A DNA stretch of 64,000 bases from positions 148,761-212,760 of the forward strand of contig CAVPYI010000006.1 of assembly GCA_963709905.1 (NCBI GenBank), in the 5' to 3' direction. Below are positions 25,868-38,506 of the stretch, one piece after another. Numbering within the stretch: position 1 is the first letter of the stretch; each line of letters begins with the position of its first letter. The position numbers and the translations under genes were made by a program. Source of the stretch: an uncultured Gemmatimonadales bacterium (GTDB lineage: Bacteria > Gemmatimonadota > Gemmatimonadetes > Gemmatimonadales > GWC2-71-9). A model generated the notes under the pieces. That model did not search any database. It was not told where the DNA came from and saw only the letters and a list, made by a program, of their open reading frames with translations.

Positions 25868-27739
25868 ATGACCGCACCAGCCGCAACCCGAGGGGTCGAT
25901 TGTCCCTCCTGGGTTACGCATGAGCGTCTTCGAGCCTGGGTGGCGGAGATCGCCGCCCTTACCCAGCCCGACCAGATCCACTGGTGCGACGGGTCGGAGG
26001 CGGAAAACACGGCCCTGCTCGACCAGATGGTCGCCGCCGGGACGTTGCGTCGCCTGAACCCCGCCAAGCGACCCAACAGCTACCTGGCCCTGTCCGACCC
26101 GAACGACGTGGCCCGGGTGGAGGACCGCACCTTCATCTGCAGTATCCGCCGTCAGGACGCCGGCCCGACCAACAACTGGGTCGACCCGCGGGAGATGCGC
26201 ACCACCCTCCGGCGGGTCTTCAACGGGGCGATGCGCGGTCGGACGATGTACGTGGTGCCCTTCAGTATGGGCCCGCTCGGGTCACCACTGGCGCATATCG
26301 GGGTTGAGCTGACGGATTCGCCGTACGTGGTGGTCAACATGCGCATCATGACCCGCATGGGCCATGGCGCCCTCACAGCCCTGGGCGAAGGCGATTTCGT
26401 CCCCTGCGTCCATTCCGTGGGGCGCCCGCTCGCCCCTGGCGAGCAGGACGTCCGCTGGCCGTGCAACAAGGACGAGAAGTACATCGTCCACTTCCCCGAA
26501 GATCGCAGCATCTGGTCGTACGGGTCGGGCTACGGCGGGAATGCGCTGCTGGGGAAGAAGTGTTTCGCCCTCCGCATCGCGTCGGTCATGGCCCGTGACG
26601 AAGGCTGGATGGCCGAACACATGTTGATCGTCGGTCTGCAGAGCCCCGACGGCGAGAAGCGCTACCTCGCCGCTGGATTCCCGAGCGCCTGTGGCAAGAC
26701 CAACCTGGCGATGCTGCTCCCGCCGGCCGGTTGCGAAGGGTGGAAGGTCACGACCGTCGGCGACGACATCGCCTGGATTCGCCCTGGCCCCGATGGGCGG
26801 CTGCATGCCATCAACCCCGAGGCCGGATTCTTCGGAGTGGCGCCGGGTACATCGGCCAGCTCCAATCCAACGGCCATGGCGACCATCAGGGCGAACACCA
26901 TCTTTACTAACGTCGCGCTCACGCCGGACGGGGACGTATGGTGGGAGGGGATGACCGATCAGCCCCCGACCGCCCTCACGGACTGGCAAGGCGAGTCGTG
27001 GACCCCATCCTGCGGGCGCAAGGCCGCCCACCCCAACGCCCGGTTCACTGCCCCTGCGGCGCAGTGTCCCTCGATCGACCCGCAGTGGGAGAATCCCGAG
27101 GGAGTGCCGATCAGCGCGTTCCTGTTCGGCGGGCGGCGGGCCTCGCTGGTGCCGCTGGTGGTGCAGGCGGTCAACTGGAATTTCGGGGTGTACACCGCCG
27201 CCACGATCGGCTCCGAGACCACCGCCGCCGCGGCCGGCGCGGTCGGCCAGGTCCGCCGCGACCCCATGTCGATGCTGCCGTTCTGCGGGTATCACATGGG
27301 TGATTACTTCAACCACTGGCTGCAGATGGGGCGACAGATCAACGATCCGCCCCGGATCTTCTGCGTGAACTGGTTCCGCAAGGACGCCAGGGGAAACTAC
27401 ATCTGGCCGGGCTACAGCCAGAATCTCCGGGTCCTGAAGTGGATCTTCAATCGCGTACGGGGCAAGGCGGGCTCCACCGAGAGCCCGCTGGGCTGGATGC
27501 CGAGGTACGAGGACCTGGACTGGAAGGGCATGGAGGGTTTCGACGAGGAGACCTTCCGCGACCTCATGTCCGTGCCCCGCGAGGCCTGGAAAACGGAAGT
27601 ACTGGGCCACCAGGAACTGATTGAGCGCCTGTACGACCGCATCCCCAAAGAGTTCATCCTGATGCGCGAGCTGGTGTTGTCGAGCCTGTGGCGCTCCCCC
27701 GAAGAATGGAAGCTGGCCCACGAGACCGACGCGGATTAG
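25868..27739 (+). CDS. pckG: phosphoenolpyruvate carboxykinase (GTP)
   Basis: The length, and motifs such as [13 protein letters not shown] and the WMAEHMLI region, are typical of GTP-PEPCK. Confidence 0.95.
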
Positions 27740-27745
27740 GGATCG

Positions 27746-27818
27746 GGCGTCAGGCAGCCGGCGTCAGGGTATCTACCCGGACGTCACCGCTCTGACGCCT
27801 GACGCCTGACGCCTGACC
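27746..27818. repeat. palindromic heptamer-array element: (GGCGTCA)n - spacer - (CTGACGC)n
   Basis: ggcgtca ggcagcc ggcgtca gg ... ctgacgc ctgacgc ctgacgc ctgacc. The arms are reverse complements. The element ends directly at the ATG at 27819. Confidence 0.75.
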
Positions 27819-29099: not shown

Positions 29100-29109
29100 C
29101 GCCGGCCCG

Positions 29110-30336
29110 TCAGGGTCCGCGACGCTCCCGCAGGAAGCTGGTGAATCTCGGATCGTCTCGAATACGGTTGAAGGCCGAGTCGCTCGTGATCTGTTCGAGC
29201 GACCAGCGACTCGGGACGTCGCGGAGCCAGGCGATCGCGCTGTCCACGTCCCCCAGCGCAGCCGCCGACGTCCCGGCCCCGACCGCCACGAAGCCGCGGT
29301 TCCGGTTACCGAGGTCCCTGGCGCGCTGATAGGCGTTCAAGGCCGTTCGGTACTCGCCGGCCCCGCGCGCGGCGTCCGCCAATCGGAGGGCGATGTCCGG
29401 ATCGGTGGATCGGCGGGCCGCGAGTTGCTGGTACAGCCCCAGCGCCTCCCGGAACTCACCCGCTCCAAGCCGCCCCGCCGCCCGCGCCTCATCGCGGCCA
29501 CGGGAGAGCGCTTCCGTGACATCCGGCTGGGTCACCTCACGCATGAAATCGAGAGTCCGCCGAATCACGGCGACCGAGAGCGCGTTATCGTCGCTCAGCT
29601 CGAACGGGTGATGGCCCAGGGGGTGATTGACCACCGTCCAGGGGGCATTGGCGGCCAGCGCCCGCGCCACCAGTGCGTCGAGCCCGCGGTTGGTGCCCGG
29701 GTTGTCCAAGCCAGCGCGGACGACCAGCACCGGTATGTCGGTGCGGAAGTGGGTGGCGTCGGACGAGCCGTAATACAGGGTGAGCCCGCGAATGTCGCGG
29801 CGCGACGTATCCATCGCGAGGTGAACCGCGCGGGTCGCGTTGGCCGATGCCGCGAACACGACCACGCGATCGGGATCGAGGCCGAACTCGCCGGCCCGCG
29901 CACGGAGTGCGCCCAGCAACGCGTCGAAATCGGCGGCCGTCCCGCCGGCGCGCGAGTCATAAGTCACACCCGCAAGCCCCGCCGCGGCGGCCAGTCGGCC
30001 CCAGCCGATGTAGATCCCCCAGTCCTTGAATCCCCGGGCCTCGATGGCGTTGTAGAAGACGACCAGCGGGAGACCCACCGCCCGCCGTGCGGGAGGTGGA
30101 AGAAAGAGATTGTACCGAAGGTCGACCCCGCCGCTCTGAAATCCGAGATCCCTGCGGATTTCGACGCTGTCGGTGGCGAGCGGATGATATACGAGGCGGC
30201 TGCTGTCCCGGACCTGGCCGGAGAGTCCGGTTGCGGGGAGAGCAAGCAGGAACAGGGTCAGCGACGTGCCGGCAGCCATGTGGCCCCGAGAGGGAGCGTT
30301 CAGGGGGCTACGGCCGATGAATTGGGAGAGTTTCAT
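29110..30336 (-). CDS. alpha/beta hydrolase-like domain fused to C-terminal TPR-like repeats
   Basis: Signal-like MAAGTSLTLFLLALPATGLSGQ, a hydrolase-like core, then TPR-like helices (ALGLYQQLAARRSTDPDIALRLADAARGAGEYRTALNAYQRA). The start is ambiguous (30378 GTG, 30336 ATG or 30279 ATG). Confidence 0.6.
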   Translation of the reverse strand: MKLSQFIGRSPLNAPSRGHMAAGTSLTLFLLALPATGLSGQVRDSSRLVYHPLATDSVEIRRDLGFQSGGVDLRYNLFLPPPARRAVGLPLVVFYNAIEARGFKDWGIYIGWGRLAAAAGLAGVTYDSRAGGTAADFDALLGALRARAGEFGLDPDRVVVFAASANATRAVHLAMDTSRRDIRGLTLYYGSSDATHFRTDIPVLVVRAGLDNPGTNRGLDALVARALAANAPWTVVNHPLGHHPFELSDDNALSVAVIRRTLDFMREVTQPDVTEALSRGRDEARAAGRLGAGEFREALGLYQQLAARRSTDPDIALRLADAARGAGEYRTALNAYQRARDLGNRNRGFVAVGAGTSAAALGDVDSAIAWLRDVPSRWSLEQITSDSAFNRIRDDPRFTSFLRERRGP

Positions 30337-30381
30337 GTTCCGATCCGGCACGCCGAGCCGGTCGGAGGGAGCGGGCACGGC

Positions 30382-31171: not shown

Positions 31172-32542
31172 TTACCTCAAGAGCAGGATGGCGGCCAGGA
31201 CGCCCAGCAACACGATGAGCACGGCCGGGATCAGCCAGGGAGGTCGGCCGCTCGAGGCGCGTGGGGCGATGACGATCGGAGAGCGTCTGGGTGTCGGGTG
31301 CCGGGACGGAGGCTCCGCCGGATGCGTGGGCGCGGCGGCCGCAACCGGGACGGGCTCGCGCACGGGTGGCGACGGTGGCGGCGGCGGCGGCGGCGGTTCC
31401 ATGGCGCCCATCATCTTGGTCCCGGTCCCGGCGTCCATGCTGACGTGGTCATCGGTCGGTTCGAACATCACCGAGACCTCGCCGAACCGCACGATGGTCC
31501 CGGGACCGAGCAGCGCTTCGGCCTGGATCCGCTCACCGTCGACCCAGGTGCCGTTGGTGGAGCCGTTATCTACCACGACCCACACCCCCTCGCGTCGCTG
31601 CAGCTTGGCATGGGCGCTGCTGACGCTGTCGTCGGGAATCACCAGGTCGTTGTAGTCTGCGCGCCCGATGTTCACGACCGGCACCCGAACCGTCAGCCGC
31701 TGTCCCTTGAGGATCCCGCTGCGCACCATGAACGTGGCCAGGGGCACACTCGGCCCCGACGAGCGGACGGTCGGCTTCGGCATCGACGGGGTCGGCACCG
31801 GCCCGCCGTGCATGGTCTGGGAGAGCCGCTCCTCGGCGCCGGCCGGCGGCGGCGGCGCCACGCTTGGCGCCGGGGCCGGAGCATCGGCCGCCTTGTCCGC
31901 GTAGAACCGGAAATCGTGATCGCCGATCTTGATCACGTCCGCCCGGGCCAGGATCCGCTGGGCTTCGATCCGGTCTCCGTTCACGAATGTTCCGTTGGTG
32001 CTGCTATCCACCAGGACATATCCCTGGGGTGAGACGAAAATCTCCGCGTGGCGCCGTGACACGTCCTTGTTCGGCACGACGATGTCGCACCCGGCCTCGC
32101 GACCGATCACCAGAGGCGTCGAGCCAATCGTGTACTCCCGGCCGTCGGTCAGGCACACCAGCCGACCGCCGGTCGCCGCCGTGGGCGGTTTCGGGCTCGA
32201 CGGCTTGGCCGTCGCGGAAACCATCCTGGCGACATCAGACGAACTCACGAACTGAGTGCTGCCACTCCGCCTCGGGTCGTGGACCAGGAGCTCGTGGATC
32301 CCGATCTGTACCTTGTCGCCGTGCAGGATCGGAGCCGGCTCAATACCCAGCTTCACCCCGTTCAGCAGGACGTCGTTGTCGTCCACCCGGCGGACCGAGG
32401 CGGAACCATCGGCCGTACCGACCGCCACCGCGTGGGCCGCCGCGACGCCTGTCAGCCGGAGCCCACAGGACGGATCGGTACCGATCACCATCTCCCCCAG
32501 TGGGATGGGAGTGCGCTCGCCGCCGAACTCCAATTCCATCAT
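31172..32542 (-). CDS. membrane-anchored protein with three FHA domains
   Basis: Three FHA cores (the second and third carry ...VSRRHAEI...GYVLVDSSTNGTFVNG and ...VSSAHAKL...VVDNGSTNGTWVDG), a Pro-rich linker and a C-terminal TM segment WLIPAVLIVLLGVLAAILLL. Confidence 0.85.
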   Translation of the reverse strand: MMELEFGGERTPIPLGEMVIGTDPSCGLRLTGVAAAHAVAVGTADGSASVRRVDDNDVLLNGVKLGIEPAPILHGDKVQIGIHELLVHDPRRSGSTQFVSSSDVARMVSATAKPSSPKPPTAATGGRLVCLTDGREYTIGSTPLVIGREAGCDIVVPNKDVSRRHAEIFVSPQGYVLVDSSTNGTFVNGDRIEAQRILARADVIKIGDHDFRFYADKAADAPAPAPSVAPPPPAGAEERLSQTMHGGPVPTPSMPKPTVRSSGPSVPLATFMVRSGILKGQRLTVRVPVVNIGRADYNDLVIPDDSVSSAHAKLQRREGVWVVVDNGSTNGTWVDGERIQAEALLGPGTIVRFGEVSVMFEPTDDHVSMDAGTGTKMMGAMEPPPPPPPPSPPVREPVPVAAAAPTHPAEPPSRHPTPRRSPIVIAPRASSGRPPWLIPAVLIVLLGVLAAILLLR

Positions 32543-32647: not shown

Positions 32648-34570
32648 TTACGCGCTCAGAGGCTGGACCCGCTCCTGCCCCCGAAGCTGCAGCTCGTACA
32701 GACGCTGGTACAGACCGCCCGCCTCCAGGAGCGCACGGTGGGTACCGCGCTCGCGAATTTCTCCATGGTGCAGCACCAGGATCTCGTCGGCGTGGAGAAT
32801 GGTACTCAGCCGGTGCGCCACGACCAGATTCGTCCGGCCCGCCATCAGCTCCGTCACCGCCCGCTGAACCTGGACCTCCGCCACGGCGTCGACCGAACTC
32901 GTCGCCTCGTCGAGGACCAGGATCCCGGGATCACGCGCCAAGGCCCGGGCAAAGGAAAGCAGTTGTCGCTCCCCCACACTGAGGTTTCGCCCTCGCTCCC
33001 CCAGCACATGACCGTACCCCCCGGGCAGGAGATCGATGAACCGGTCCGCCCCGACCCGCCGAGCCGCGGCCCGGGCGGCCTCCGGGGTGATCGCGGCATC
33101 GAGCACCAGGTTTCTCAGAATGTCGCCGGTGAACAGAAACAGGTCTTGCTGCACGAAGCCAATCAGGCCCCGGAGCTCGGCCGGGTCGAGTTCACGGATG
33201 TCCGTCCCGTCCACGGTGATACGCCCGCGGTCGATATCGTAGAACCGGAGCAGCAGGTTGATGATCGTCGTTTTCCCGGCACCGGTGTGCCCGACCAGCG
33301 CCACGGTCTGACCAGGGCTGGCGCGGAAACTCACCCCCCGGAGCACCCACTCGCCACTCGGCGGCTCGGCGGTTCGGCCGCTCGACGGCTCGGCGGCTGG
33401 AGGAGCCGAAGCCACCCGAGGCCGGGGCTCCGATGCACTTACCCCACCGGCCGCCGAGCCGTCGAGCGGCCGAGCCGCCGAGCCGCCGTACCGGAACCAG
33501 ACGTTCTCGAACACCACCTCACCGCGCACCGGCCGGGAGAGACGCACCGGGGTGGGCCGGCTTCTCACTTCCGGCTCCGTGTCCAGGAGGCGGAAGATCC
33601 GTTCCGAGGAGGCCATCGCGCTCTGCAGCAGGTTGTACTTCTCCGACAGGTCCTGGAGCGGCTCGAAGAACCTCCGGGTGAGCTGGAGAAAGGCGGCCAG
33701 CACACCGACGGTGAGCGTGCCGCCCAGGACGCGCCCCCCGCCGTATCCCAGCAGCAGCGCCAGCGAGACGATCGCCAGGAACTCGACCACGGGGAAGAAT
33801 ACGGCGTACACCGTGATGGAGCGGAGGTGGGAATCGAGATGCGCCTGGTTGACCGACTCGAACGCCCGCCCTGCCGCCGCCTCGCGGCCGAACAGCTGAA
33901 TGACGCGGATCCCCGACAGGTGCTCCTGCAGCAAGGCGTTCATTCTGGCCACCCGGGCGCGGATCTCGCGAAAGGTCTCGCGCACGTACCGCCGGAAGGT
34001 GAAGACGGCGATCAGCATCAAGGGGATCACGGCGAACGCCATCAGCGCCAGGCGCCAGTCCATCACCAGCATCATGGCGACGATTGCCATCAGGGTGAAG
34101 ACATCGCCGAAGACCGTCACCACCCCGGACGAAAACAGCTCGTTGAGGGTCTCGACATCCGAGGTGACCCGGGTCATCAGGCGACCGACCGGGTGCCGGT
34201 CGAAGAACGGCACCGAGAGCCGCTGCAGGTGGCTGAAGAGCTGCAGCCGGAGGTCGGCCATGATCCGCTGGCCCATCCAGGCCGTGAGGTACGCCTGGGC
34301 GAAGTCGAGCAGGAACCCGAGCAGCAGCGCGCCCAGCAACAGGAGCGCCAGCCGGCCCAGCAACCCGACGTCCCGCGCCGGCACCGCCACGTCCAGCGCC
34401 CGCTGCGTCAGGGCCGGGCCGACCAGGGCGAGGGCGGCGGTCCCGAGGAGCGACAGCACCGCCAGCGCTGCCAGCCACCAGTACGGACGCAGGTAGACCA
34501 GCAGGCGACGCATGAGTTCGGCGTCGTAGCGCTTTTCGTCGGGTTCGACGAACGGATCGAGCTCGGCCAT
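32648..34570 (-). CDS. ABC exporter, fused permease/ATPase (MsbA-like)
   Basis: Six-TM domain, Walker A GHTGAGKTT, signature LSVGERQLL and Walker B ILVLDEATSS. I place the start at MAELDPFVEP (ATG 34570). The upstream part of the listed 1579-aa ORF is an artefact. Confidence 0.9.
   Translation of the reverse strand: MAELDPFVEPDEKRYDAELMRRLLVYLRPYWWLAALAVLSLLGTAALALVGPALTQRALDVAVPARDVGLLGRLALLLLGALLLGFLLDFAQAYLTAWMGQRIMADLRLQLFSHLQRLSVPFFDRHPVGRLMTRVTSDVETLNELFSSGVVTVFGDVFTLMAIVAMMLVMDWRLALMAFAVIPLMLIAVFTFRRYVRETFREIRARVARMNALLQEHLSGIRVIQLFGREAAAGRAFESVNQAHLDSHLRSITVYAVFFPVVEFLAIVSLALLLGYGGGRVLGGTLTVGVLAAFLQLTRRFFEPLQDLSEKYNLLQSAMASSERIFRLLDTEPEVRSRPTPVRLSRPVRGEVVFENVWFRYGGSAARPLDGSAAGGVSASEPRPRVASAPPAAEPSSGRTAEPPSGEWVLRGVSFRASPGQTVALVGHTGAGKTTIINLLLRFYDIDRGRITVDGTDIRELDPAELRGLIGFVQQDLFLFTGDILRNLVLDAAITPEAARAAARRVGADRFIDLLPGGYGHVLGERGRNLSVGERQLLSFARALARDPGILVLDEATSSVDAVAEVQVQRAVTELMAGRTNLVVAHRLSTILHADEILVLHHGEIRERGTHRALLEAGGLYQRLYELQLRGQERVQPLSA
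33357..33489. repeat. palindromic octamer-array element, copy B, inside the ABC exporter coding sequence
   Basis: The left arm ctcggcggctcggcggttcggccgctcgacggctcggcggc and the right arm gccgccgagccgtcgagcggccgagccgccgagccgcc are reverse complements with one mismatch. The spacer is about 50 nt. Confidence 0.8.
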
Positions 34571-35689: not shown

Positions 35690-38506
35690 ATGTCGTCCCC
35701 CGTTCTCCGCATCGTCAACGCCCGGCAGCACAATCTCAAGGGCGTCACGGTCGATCTTCCCCGCCGAGCGTTGATCGTCATCACCGGTCCATCCGGATCG
35801 GGCAAGAGCTCGCTCGCCTTCGACACCCTGTACGCGGAAGGGCAGCGCCGCTACATCGAGTCGCTCTCCACCTACGCCAAGCAGTTTCTCGAACGGATGC
35901 CCAAGCCGGCGGTGGACCGGCTGGAAGGCCTCGCTCCCGCCATCGCCATCGAGCAGCGCAACCCGACCGTGTCCAGCCGCTCCACGGTCGGTACCGCCAC
36001 CGAGATCTACGACTACCTCCGTCTGCTCTGGGCCCGGGTGGGCCGGCAGCAGTGCCGGCTGTGCGGCCGTCCGGTGCACCGGGACACCCCGGAGTCCGCC
36101 GCCGGTACGGTCGTCGATCAGGCCACCGGCGGCCCGCTTCAGATCACCTTCCCGCTGCCATCCACCGCCCGCCAGAGCCACGCCGCGATCGTCGAGAACC
36201 TGGCCGCCCTCGGCTTCGTCCGGGTCATCGCGGACGGCACGGTCATCCACCTCGAGGAGGCTCCGCCCGACATCGATCTCGCGAGCATCGCGGATCTGCT
36301 GGTGGTGGTCGACCGACTCTCCCTGGACCCGCCGGGCCACCGAGCCGCCGAGCCGCCGAGCCGCCTGGTCGAATCTCTCGCGACCGCATTCGCCGAGGGC
36401 GAGGGGATCGCAATCGTCCTCCAGGAGGCGGGGCGGTTCCGGTTCACGGAACGTCCCGCCTGCAGCGAGTGCGACACGCCCGCGGTGCCCATCACCCCGG
36501 CGCTGTTTTCCTTCAATAACCCGCGCGGAGCCTGTCAGGCGTGCAACGGCTTCGGCGCCATCCTCGAGTACGACGAATCCCTGGTCATCCCGGAACCTTC
36601 CCGGAGCCTCAGCGAGGGCGCCATCGATCCGTGGACCAAGCCGCGGTATGAGACCCGCCGCCGCCTGCTGCTGAACACGGCGCGCACGCTGGGCGTGGAT
36701 CCCGACCGCCCCTGGGCCCGGCTCACCGAGCGCCAGCGCCGCGAGCTGCTCCACGGCCACCATGGACGATACGTGGGGATCTTCCCGTTCCTGAAGGCGC
36801 TCGAGCAGAAGCGCTACAAGCAGTACATCCGGGTCTTCCTGCGTCAGTACCAGCTGGCCACGACCTGCCCGACGTGCGGGGGGGCGCGCCTCAACGAGGA
36901 CGCCCTGGCAGTGCGGATCGCCGGTGAGCCGATCTCGGCGCCGGCCGCGCGGCCGGTCGAGTCGCTGCACCAGTGGCTCGAACAACTGCCGCTGTCTGAT
37001 TTCGACCAGCAGGTCGCCCACCTGATCCTCGACCAGCTCCGCCAGCGCATTGCCTACCTGCGGGACGTGGGACTCGGCTACCTCACCCTCGATCGCCTCA
37101 CCCGCACCCTGTCCGGCGGCGAGGCCCAGCGGATTGCGCTCGCCAACGCGCTGGGCTCGAAGCTGGTGGACGCGTTGTACGTGCTGGATGAGCCGTCGAT
37201 CGGCCTGCACCCCCGGGACATCCACCGACTCCTCGCCCTGCTCGAGCGGCTGCGCGACAACGGCAACACCCTGGTGGTGGTGGAGCATGACCCTGCCGCG
37301 ATGCGGCGAGCCGACTTCATGCTCGAGCTGGGACCGGGAGCGGGCGAACACGGCGGACAGGTGGTGTACGCGGGATCGGTGGAGCATGCCGCCGAGTCGC
37401 TCACCGGCCAGTACCTGTCAGGCCGGAAGCGGATCGGCGTACCCAGCGTTCGGCGCTCGCTGGGACCCTGGCTCCGCGTCGAAGGAGCGACCCTCCACAA
37501 TCTCCACGACGTCAGCGTGGCGATTCCGCTCGGAACGGTGACCGCCGTCACCGGGGTCTCGGGGTCGGGAAAGAGCACGCTGGTCCACAACGTCCTGTAC
37601 CGGCAGCTCGAAACCCGGCTCAAGGGCGGACATTCCGCCAAGGAACACCTGGGCGAGACGGTCGGGACCGTTCGGAAGCTGACGGGTGTGGAGCACCTCG
37701 ACGACGTCCTGTTGATCGACCAATCCCCCATCGGACGGACACCGCGCTCGAACCCGATCACCTACGTGAAGGGATTTGACGAGATTCGTGAACTCTTCGC
37801 CGCCCAGCCCTCCGCCCGCCAGCAGAAGCTGAAAGCGCAGGCCTTCTCCTTCAACATGCCCGGAGGACGGTGTGAGACGTGCGAGGGAGCCGGCGCGGTG
37901 CTGGTCGAAATGGTCTTCCTCGCCGATGTCTACGTTCCCTGCGAGACCTGCGGCGGGACCCGGTATCGGCGCGAGGTGCTGGACGTGCGAATCCAGGGTT
38001 GCTCGATCGCCGACGTGCTGCAGTTCACCGTCGACGAGGCGATCCGGCGCTTCCGTCATCAGGCCAGGCTGGGACAGGCCCTCTGGCAGCTCCAGCAGGT
38101 CGGCCTGGGCTATCTCCGCCTCGGGCAGCCGGCCACGACGCTCTCGGGCGGGGAGGCTCAGCGACTGAAGATCGCCCGTGAACTGGCCCAGTCCGGCCGA
38201 CGGGGCGGGCGCAAGCTCTACATACTCGATGAGCCGACCACCGGGCTCCACCTCGACGACGTCCGGGTGCTGATCCAGGTCCTCGACCGGCTGGTGGACG
38301 CCGGGCACACCGCCCTCATCATCGAGCACCATCTCGACATCATCAAGCGCGCCGACTGGGTGATCGACCTCGGGCCCGAGGCCGGAGACGCGGGCGGCCG
38401 GGTCGTGGTCCAGGGAACCCCGGAAGAGGTGGCCGAGACCCCCACCTCCCACACCGGTCGCTACCTGCGGGAAGTGCTGGATCCGGCCGCCATGGTCGGC
38501 GGATGA
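35690..38506 (+). CDS. uvrA: excinuclease ABC subunit A
   Basis: ITGPSGSGKSSLAFDTLYAEGQRRY, zinc-finger Cys pairs, two ABC modules and VTGVSGSGKSTL. Confidence 0.95.
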   Translation: MSSPVLRIVNARQHNLKGVTVDLPRRALIVITGPSGSGKSSLAFDTLYAEGQRRYIESLSTYAKQFLERMPKPAVDRLEGLAPAIAIEQRNPTVSSRSTVGTATEIYDYLRLLWARVGRQQCRLCGRPVHRDTPESAAGTVVDQATGGPLQITFPLPSTARQSHAAIVENLAALGFVRVIADGTVIHLEEAPPDIDLASIADLLVVVDRLSLDPPGHRAAEPPSRLVESLATAFAEGEGIAIVLQEAGRFRFTERPACSECDTPAVPITPALFSFNNPRGACQACNGFGAILEYDESLVIPEPSRSLSEGAIDPWTKPRYETRRRLLLNTARTLGVDPDRPWARLTERQRRELLHGHHGRYVGIFPFLKALEQKRYKQYIRVFLRQYQLATTCPTCGGARLNEDALAVRIAGEPISAPAARPVESLHQWLEQLPLSDFDQQVAHLILDQLRQRIAYLRDVGLGYLTLDRLTRTLSGGEAQRIALANALGSKLVDALYVLDEPSIGLHPRDIHRLLALLERLRDNGNTLVVVEHDPAAMRRADFMLELGPGAGEHGGQVVYAGSVEHAAESLTGQYLSGRKRIGVPSVRRSLGPWLRVEGATLHNLHDVSVAIPLGTVTAVTGVSGSGKSTLVHNVLYRQLETRLKGGHSAKEHLGETVGTVRKLTGVEHLDDVLLIDQSPIGRTPRSNPITYVKGFDEIRELFAAQPSARQQKLKAQAFSFNMPGGRCETCEGAGAVLVEMVFLADVYVPCETCGGTRYRREVLDVRIQGCSIADVLQFTVDEAIRRFRHQARLGQALWQLQQVGLGYLRLGQPATTLSGGEAQRLKIARELAQSGRRGGRKLYILDEPTTGLHLDDVRVLIQVLDRLVDAGHTALIIEHHLDIIKRADWVIDLGPEAGDAGGRVVVQGTPEEVAETPTSHTGRYLREVLDPAAMVGG
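36338..36365. repeat. solo arm of the octamer array (CCGAGCCG)x3 inside uvrA
   Basis: ccaccgagccgccgagccgccgagccgcc, translated HRAAEPPSRL in the uvrA frame. Confidence 0.55.

Follow-up and report, generated by a model that had tools for sequence, protein, structure and literature searches.

A palindromic octamer-array element inserted in frame next to the A-loop of a Gemmatimonadales ABC exporter, and its dispersed relatives

A stretch of 64,000 nucleotides from an uncultured Gemmatimonadales bacterium (GenBank assembly GCA_963709905.1, contig CAVPYI010000006.1, positions 148,761 to 212,760 of the forward strand; hereafter the window) contains a gene for an ATP-binding cassette (ABC) exporter into which a palindromic repeat element is inserted in frame. 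The gene (34570..32648, minus strand) is intact and encodes a subfamily-B exporter of 640 amino acids with a transmembrane and a nucleotide-binding domain (NBD), recognized as ABC_membrane (residues 36-304) and ABC_tran (residues 410-558), and it retains intact Walker A, signature, Walker B and H-loop motifs. The best homologues of the protein all come from Gemmatimonadales or from metagenome-assembled genomes (MAGs) of Gemmatimonadota. The insert comprises residues 362-405, encoded by 132 nt without a stop codon, lies between the flanks VWFRY and WVLRGVSF...GHTGAGKTT, and would yield the tryptic peptides PLDGSAAGGVSASEPRPR and VASAPPAAEPSSGR. In ABC ATPases the tyrosine of the F-x-Y motif is the A-loop residue, which stacks on the adenine, and the insert therefore begins one residue past the A-loop tyrosine, in the loop of the β1-β2 hairpin. 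An AlphaFold2 model based on 49 orthologues places residues 364-405 between the strands 352-359 and 410-417 with a predicted local distance difference test (pLDDT) score below 50 but models the remainder of the NBD with confidence, and the insert is predicted to form a disordered surface loop between these two strands. A sequence search of the PDB gave NBD alignments that begin at query residue 59/60, past the insert, and returned no solved exporter with the segment and no table of loop lengths.

The whole element (33357..33490, unstranded; encoding GGSAARPLDG...TAEPPS) consists of two inverted arrays of 8-nt units around a unique centre. The left arm (33359..33396, plus strand) is composed of the units CTCGGCGG, TTCGGCCG, CTCGACGG and CTCGGCGG, followed by CTGGAGG, the asymmetric inner motif of the family described below. 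The centre (33397..33450, unstranded, 54 nt) differs between copies and between orthologues, and the right arm (33451..33488, plus strand) is built of CCGCCGAG-type units and repeats, in mirror image and in the same order, the left-arm variants CTCGGCCG and CTCGACGG, such that 37 of the 38 positions are complementary. The first-pass annotation of this DNA, made from the letters alone, had described two arms of about 40 nt made of tandem 8-mers, with one mismatch and about 50 nt apart, within a stop-free in-frame insert of about 132 bp, and this description holds with arms of 38 nt each, one mismatch and a gap of 54 nt; a looser extension lengthens the arms to 45 nt at 93% complementarity. Tandem Repeats Finder reports period-8 arrays at 33357-33398 (5.2 copies) and 33450-33488 (4.9 copies), with the consensus CTCGGCGG and GCCGCCGA, respectively. 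The 16-mer double unit CTCGGCGGCTCGGCGG, allowing up to two mismatches, occurs 18 times in the window as compared with 0.81 expected, a count that none of 100 shuffles reached. The unit CTCGGCGG itself contains no run of three or more G. An independent Logan assembly of 3 kb (L137), with 99.97% identity over 2971 nt, carries an identical element, which is therefore not an assembly artefact. An Rfam scan of the whole window matched two tRNAs only, with no match at the elements.

A window-wide scan for inverted repeats returned two longest close pairs in the 64 kb, the exporter element and a second full copy of 113 nt (13363..13475, unstranded), which takes up the interval from the lepA stop (13359) to a GT9 glycosyltransferase gene. 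Both fold very stably as RNA (-125 kcal/mol with a z-score of about -10.4 for the exporter element, and -101.6 kcal/mol with a z-score of about -10.5 for the second copy). The only plausible start of the GT9 gene, which is heptosyltransferase-like, is a GTG at 13416 in the centre of this copy, with a Shine-Dalgarno-like GGGGGA upstream, so that about 19 N-terminal residues of the protein are encoded by the centre and the right arm of the element. A third locus is a solo array in uvrA (36329..36368, plus strand), in which 4.6 units of CCGCCGAG are read in frame as PPGHRAAEPPSR; this array is orthologous in three related genomes (L050-L052), with 3-5 units there. Apart from a doubtful PAEPPSRH in a protein with an FHA domain (31172..32542), a search of the window for degenerate copies added nothing to these three loci; this peptide lies near 31318 on the minus strand, in the proline-rich C-terminal region, and is either the remnant of a decayed array or a chance match. 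At least two further copies or fragments nearby had been suspected from the letters, and the full copy and the one-armed uvrA array are indeed such copies.

Among 120 exporter orthologues with 68-84% identity, the segment between the A-loop tyrosine and the following tryptophan ranges from 5 to 66 residues and has 46 in the window. In a neighbour-joining tree built without the loop, the basal Gemmatimonadales lineages carry 5-7 residues, so that the first-pass annotation was right to regard the loop as an addition relative to orthologues. In the clade of the window organism many loops open with a translated left arm (GGSAARPL, DGSAARRH, DGSGARRF, GGSPVRRF...) and a few close with a translated right arm (AEPPSRRAAEP); had orthologues without the repeat family shared the loop, an insertion would have been doubtful, but the loop-sharing orthologues carry the family as well. 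Syntenic loci spanning uvrA, the LPG-synthase-TM gene, the exporter and the FHA and PP2C genes were compared between the window and its relatives. The left arm begins at the identical nucleotide after the tyrosine codon (TAC) in the window, L050, L051, L052 and L136, and the exporter copy is therefore one old insertion common to several related species, which is decaying in most of them. Indeed, the centres of the exporter loop are unrelated among these five genomes, the right arm is retained in L050 and L051 and lost in L052 and L136, and the z-score of the hairpin is -9.7 in the window as compared with -3.7, -2.1, -1.8 and +0.4 in the orthologues. The left arm is identical at 24 of 24 nt between the window and L052, including the variant unit CTCGGCCG, in a gene with about 77% identity overall.

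Different palindromes occupy the same position in other clades. The exporter loop of L053 is made of GTTCCGA heptamers (peptides VPSSEFRV...ERGTGNERR) and that of L054 of CACAGATTT nonamers (TDFTDL...SVKS), and at least five distinct repeat-peptide signatures are found in the loop among the orthologues. The loop past the A-loop tyrosine is a recurrent permissive site, which accepts 5-66 residues. The shortest loop in the clade of the window organism, in L135 (11070-11090), reads TAC GGT TCC TCG GGA GAT TGG, and GGTTCCTCGGGA within it is similar to the CTCGGCGG units as well as to the GTTCCGA units.

The first-pass annotation had proposed a dispersed repeat family, and such a family was found both in the window and beyond it. 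In an exact-pattern scan covering one genome per species the palindromic pair was present in at least nine Gemmatimonadota genomes, and arrays and full elements in those loci lie in intergenic spacers and also in frame in genes. In-frame hosts are an AcrB-family pump (L001/L038), MutS (L044), QueA (L007), the linkers of an E2 acyltransferase (L041), the inter-domain linker of NadE (L049), MnmE (L037) and UvrA. Altogether about 16 of 42 sampled CTCGGCGG arrays or elements (~40%) are called intragenic and in frame, in a small sample that is partly selected by the search pattern. Because the flank-based gene caller misses some intragenic copies, host genes were confirmed by Pfam; a GC3-based caller for annotating the window was too crude and was abandoned. 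Twelve or more elements, drawn from at least eight genomes, have one arm that ends inwardly with a one-sided motif, CGGCGGCTGG(A/T)CGGCTCGG, the other arm consisting of plain units, and the same motif is present at 33391 in the window copy. The centres vary in sequence and length between copies, and many copies in other genomes end GACGG...CCGTC, resembling a CGTC tag. (CTCGGCGG)n reads LGGSAARR, and its complement PPSRRAAE, in every frame and is free of stops in all six frames, so that a gene can tolerate an array in either orientation.

The flanks of the window copies, and of about 12 copies elsewhere, showed no target-site duplication, as judged by eye from flank listings and without a systematic scan for direct repeats. 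Likewise, no Y1 transposase, REP-associated tyrosine transposase (RAYT; REP, repetitive extragenic palindromic sequence) or other transposase was present among the Pfam-annotated neighbours in L050-L053, L135 and L136 (loci of up to 22 kb). The family had been called possibly mobile; because of these two negative results mobility is inferred only, and the signs of spread come from sites other than the exporter, where the copy is old. The search for the pair in viral contigs found no palindromic pair, and three unrelated solo 3-unit arrays in viral-search contigs of 46-70% GC are uninformative. Matches of the genome scan in Thermoanaerobaculia were set aside, as they belong to a separate and unrelated GTAG-headed REP family. 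This abundant REP, GTAGCGCCGCCGGCTCGGCGGCTGGACCGCC..., usually forms inverted dimers and was seen in L002, L003, L005, L009 and L011-L012 and in about 25 further loci (Thermoanaerobaculia/Acidobacteriota MAGs). It has the 16-mer GGCTCGGCGGCTGGAC in common with the Gemmatimonadales arm motif, but 13 of these 16 nt were imposed by the search pattern.

Evidence on the dynamics of the arrays comes from other sites. A metagenome scan with LepA gave five close relatives (L055-L059) and 75 further loci, which served as controls from other phyla. In the five relatives, with a LepA identity of 75-86%, the junction between lepA and the GT9 gene is 8-85 nt long and free of the element, and the copy at this junction probably represents a gain in the lineage of the window organism. 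L001 and L038 are 94.1% identical over 5.6 kb, with a single hot spot of divergence (25 of 92 columns) that holds the only indel. This hot spot is the array in the AcrB-family gene, with (CCGTCGGC)3 in L001 (4346-4375) and the family motif CGGCGGCTGGACGGCTCGGCGG in L038 (1976-1999). The difference reads as a templated replacement, in which all units would have switched from the CCGTCGGC type to the family motif. Turnover is seen in the spacer between the PEPCK and HD genes, where arrays or palindromes were found in every related genome examined. In the window the spacer from the PEPCK stop to the HD-gene start (81 nt) consists entirely of a palindrome of another family but of like class, made of GTCAGGC heptamers (27738..27818, unstranded); L050 has GGGGTCAG arrays, which do contain runs of three or more G, L051 and L052 have CTCGGCGG arrays, and L135 and L053 have plain palindromes.

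A comparable spacer at 15545-15600 of the window holds adjacent direct heptamer arrays, (GTGAGAA)3.4 and (GCTGATA)3.7, without an inverted partner. The equivalent in L055 (9997-10120) is a palindromic pair of (GGTGGCA)n, and GTGAGAA arrays also occur at another site in L053 (15639-15681). Overall, period-7/8 arrays have a density of 11.1 per 100 kb in Gemmatimonadales loci that were not selected for repeats, as compared with 2.8 per 100 kb in the LepA loci of other phyla, or 5.9 where the GC content is at least 0.62. Tandem 7/8-nt palindromes were also seen in LepA loci of other phyla, namely in L113 (3080-3144, 9113-9223 and 10916-10992, i.e. three palindromes in 13.8 kb), in L130 (7275-7306, directly after the lepA stop; its units, like those of L050, are of the GGGGTCAG type with G runs) and in L078 (710-790), and the palindromic-array architecture is therefore not confined to Gemmatimonadota. 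Elsewhere in the window, the PP2C and HD genes are separated by about 1.3 kb (about 29100-30370) without a counterpart in L050-L052. At this position L053 and L054 have a gene for a MacB_PCD/FtsX permease, so that the difference probably reflects the loss of a gene in some relatives and not an insertion in the window.

These observations are probably best explained by a dispersed "foldback" repeat family that is native to a clade of Gemmatimonadales, is selfish or neutral and spreads by templated copying. In each copy, tandem CTCGGCGG units form two inverted arrays that enclose a short centre specific to that copy. An ancestor of the window organism and of several related species acquired one copy in the β1-β2 loop of the ATPase domain, immediately past the A-loop tyrosine, where it is retained as a surface loop that is predicted to be disordered. 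Copies can persist within genes because the arrays are free of stops in six frames and because only those with a length that is a multiple of three, in permissive loops, stay. The family would be selfish or neutral DNA and not an adaptation. Its spread and renewal may proceed by templated copying between dispersed copies, through ectopic gene conversion, template switching or an enzyme that recognizes hairpins as for REPINs (REP doublets forming hairpins), and a cut-and-paste DDE transposase would not be the spreading agent. Such copying would account for the common asymmetric motif, the lack of target-site duplications, the variable centres and the wholesale switch of units. Quasipalindrome correction is a mechanism established in E. 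coli, and hairpin-templated correction of this kind may keep the arms complementary, with selection as an alternative. Intergenic copies probably double as hairpins at mRNA 3' ends. The exporter copy itself is old and orthologously shared and is no recent hop, and the evidence for ongoing spread comes from other sites.

Several points weigh against this explanation. Full-length members are equal in length within each of five protein clusters at 90% identity, without any variation of the loop, and there is no sign of current activity at the exporter site. Equal sites bear other units and periods (7, 8 and 9 nt) in relatives, which generation in situ could also produce, and the seemingly empty loop of L135, GGTTCCTCGGGA, could be the seed of an array rather than the remnant of a deletion. 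Furthermore, no transposase or dedicated enzyme was found among the Pfam-annotated neighbours of the copies, the centres differ between copies, unlike those of typical MITEs (miniature transposable elements with inverted repeats), and the Gemmatimonadales DNA examined amounts to about 330 kb of loci rather than whole genomes.

Copying between sites could be dispensed with if the arrays arose where they now stand, i.e. if slippage built them at slippage- or hairpin-prone sites, intramolecular template switching turned them into palindromes, and a bias in composition made the units alike. We regard such a local origin as unlikely, although it would readily accommodate the existence of solo arrays, the 3-5 units of the uvrA array among orthologues, the unique centre of each copy, the native-looking L135 loop, which resembles the units, and the similar arrays in unrelated phyla. 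The other units and periods at equal sites in relatives, i.e. in the ABC loop, in the PEPCK-HD spacer and in the 15545 spacer as compared with L055, point in the same direction. However, one particular 8-mer greatly exceeds its chance frequency, both across genomes and at unlinked sites, a specific, non-repetitive and asymmetric motif recurs at unlinked loci, and the whole array of L038 has switched to exactly the family motif. A more far-reaching proposal, which we consider just as doubtful, is an undescribed and still active system, neither of the DDE type nor a classical RAYT/REP, that would place palindromes of short units in permissive protein loops and in spacers prone to hairpins and overwrite existing arrays with other unit families. 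If it existed, it would repeatedly make new disordered loops in essential enzymes across Gemmatimonadota and, judging by the similar arrays in unrelated soil-bacterial loci, it would reach other phyla.

The conserved inverted arms with their conserved internal mismatch, the variable spacer and the lack of target-site duplications recall REPINs and bacterial interspersed mosaic elements (BIMEs), in which a RAYT-like HUH tyrosine transposase acts in trans to mobilize an inverted recognition pair in the form of single-stranded hairpins. The many copies ending GACGG...CCGTC, with their CGTC-like tag, fit this as well, and both REPs and Rickettsia palindromic elements (RPEs) are known in frame in genes, uvrA included (PMC3733652). 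A mechanism of this type is nevertheless improbable here, since the window copies lack a GTAG head, the single arms are tandem arrays instead of self-complementary stem-loops of 5-13 bp, and the Pfam-annotated neighbours of the copies include no gene for a Y1 transposase; moreover, the CGTC REPs that have been described possess stems of 8-9 bp and no dedicated transposase.

It is quite improbable that selection maintains the element for a function, as a regulatory hairpin in the exporter mRNA or as a flexible linker or regulatory loop by the ATP site. The window copy does pair at 37 of 38 positions despite the age of the insertion, its left arm matches that of L052 at 24 of 24 nt against about 77% for the gene, the site adjoins the A-loop tyrosine, and intergenic copies abut stop or start codons as terminators or stabilizers do. 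By contrast, the hairpin is lost in most orthologues, both the length (5 to 66 residues) and the sequence of the loop change with the repeat family that occupies it, the prediction for the insert is disorder, and equal DNA is found in many unrelated genes and spacers. Finally, a classical MITE, i.e. a deletion derivative of an insertion sequence (IS) with a DDE transposase whose terminal inverted repeats would be the arrays, is very improbable, as the long terminal inverted repeats, small size and many copies are offset by the absence of a visible target-site duplication at any listed copy, centres that are not conserved, frequent solo arms and the lack of any IS with such ends in the fetched loci.

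The dispersed foldback family would carry the phenomenon of selfish DNA inside protein-coding genes, best known in Rickettsia, over to a phylum that is free-living, rich in GC and little studied, and would tie it to the little-understood tandem arrays of short units in inverted pairs. It suggests a simple rule for repeats within genes, i.e. unit arrays open in six frames combined with a permissive loop, for which the loop past the A-loop tyrosine of the ABC exporter offers a natural hot spot. It is also a tractable case for the upkeep of palindromes and the replacement of array families without a recognizable transposase. In addition, proteins with such inserts look more divergent than they are, and gene calling can be misled, as with the GT9 start inside an element.

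Among the closest known systems the RPEs are analogous in behaviour, as had been claimed in the first-pass annotation and is borne out by the copies in MutS, QueA, the AcrB-family pump, E2, the NadE linker, MnmE and UvrA. Both are dispersed palindromes of about 100-150 bp (here 132 and 113 nt), both form stop-free in-frame inserts in many unrelated housekeeping genes as extra surface loops and occur between genes as well, and both are without a known dedicated transposase or target-site duplication. However, Rickettsia are AT-rich and obligately intracellular, as opposed to the free-living Gemmatimonadales with 69% GC, and RPE families have a conserved full-length consensus instead of arms made of 8-nt tandem arrays around a non-conserved centre. 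Judging by this tandem-octamer make-up and the variable centre, homology to the RPE families (RPE-1 to RPE-8) is unlikely.

We found no description of such a repeat for Gemmatimonadota in the literature. The first-pass annotation knew of no equivalent in high-GC genomes of this kind, but equivalents have been described. Intragenic GTAG/CGTC REPs are known from several phyla and from high-GC genomes, including in uvrA (PMC3733652), and dispersed tandem-heptamer families comprise GGGAATC of Xanthomonas, GGGGA(C/T)T of Nostoc and the cyanobacterial short tandemly repeated repetitive (STRR) sequences, with 2-26 tandem copies (PMC4692102). In Xanthomonas about 40% of the heptamer sites consist of two convergent arrays on opposite strands, which together make an inverted repeat; about 70-75 arrays per genome form such convergent pairs in Xanthomonas and Nostoc, without linkage to IS, and the arrays lie mostly near gene ends and are largely retained at orthologous sites between species (PMC4692102). 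The Gemmatimonadales family resembles them in having many sites with at least two tandem copies of one 6-9 nt unit and frequent close pairs of arrays on opposite strands, and the window also holds heptamer arrays of its own (27738-27818 and 15545-15600). It differs in its 8-nt unit CTCGGCGG, which is not G-tract-rich and hence not prone to form G-quadruplexes (G4), and in its conserved asymmetric inner unit CTGG(A/T)CGG. Furthermore, about 40% of the sampled CTCGGCGG copies are called within genes, where the copies are not depleted in this small and partly pattern-selected sample, as compared with 7-11% in Xanthomonas.

With REPs, BIMEs and REPINs the family has in common the inverted pairs, long hairpins, variable spacers and conserved stem imperfections (PMC3733652; PMC3116915), as well as the location at gene 3' ends and the in-frame intragenic copies, which in the case of REPs encode 20-80 amino acids and include uvrA and other repair genes of high-GC bacteria (PMC3733652). 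By contrast, the window copies start with GGCGG after ..TAC and with CTCGG after ..TGA instead of GTAG, a single arm is a tandem array without self-complementarity and not a stem-loop of 5-13 bp, the copies elsewhere that end GACGG...CCGTC lack the 8-9 bp stem of CGTC REPs, and no RAYT gene is among the Pfam-annotated neighbours. MITEs share the terminal inverted repeats, but the target-site duplication was not seen by eye. The Foldback (FB) and Galileo-type transposons resemble the element in architecture alone: their long inverted arms, too, are made of short tandem repeats and enclose a variable middle, but they are eukaryotic, kilobase-sized and linked to a transposase. In archaeal Borgs, repeat DNA within open reading frames adds disordered low-complexity segments too, but these repeats are direct, have units that are multiples of 3 nt when in reading frames and arise independently each time, rather than forming a dispersed palindromic family (PMC9879509). 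The element is thus a variant of known phenomena, which behaves like RPEs and intragenic REPs and is built like the arrays of Xanthomonas and Nostoc, and which departs from REPs, MITEs and G4-forming heptamers in the features that define each of them.

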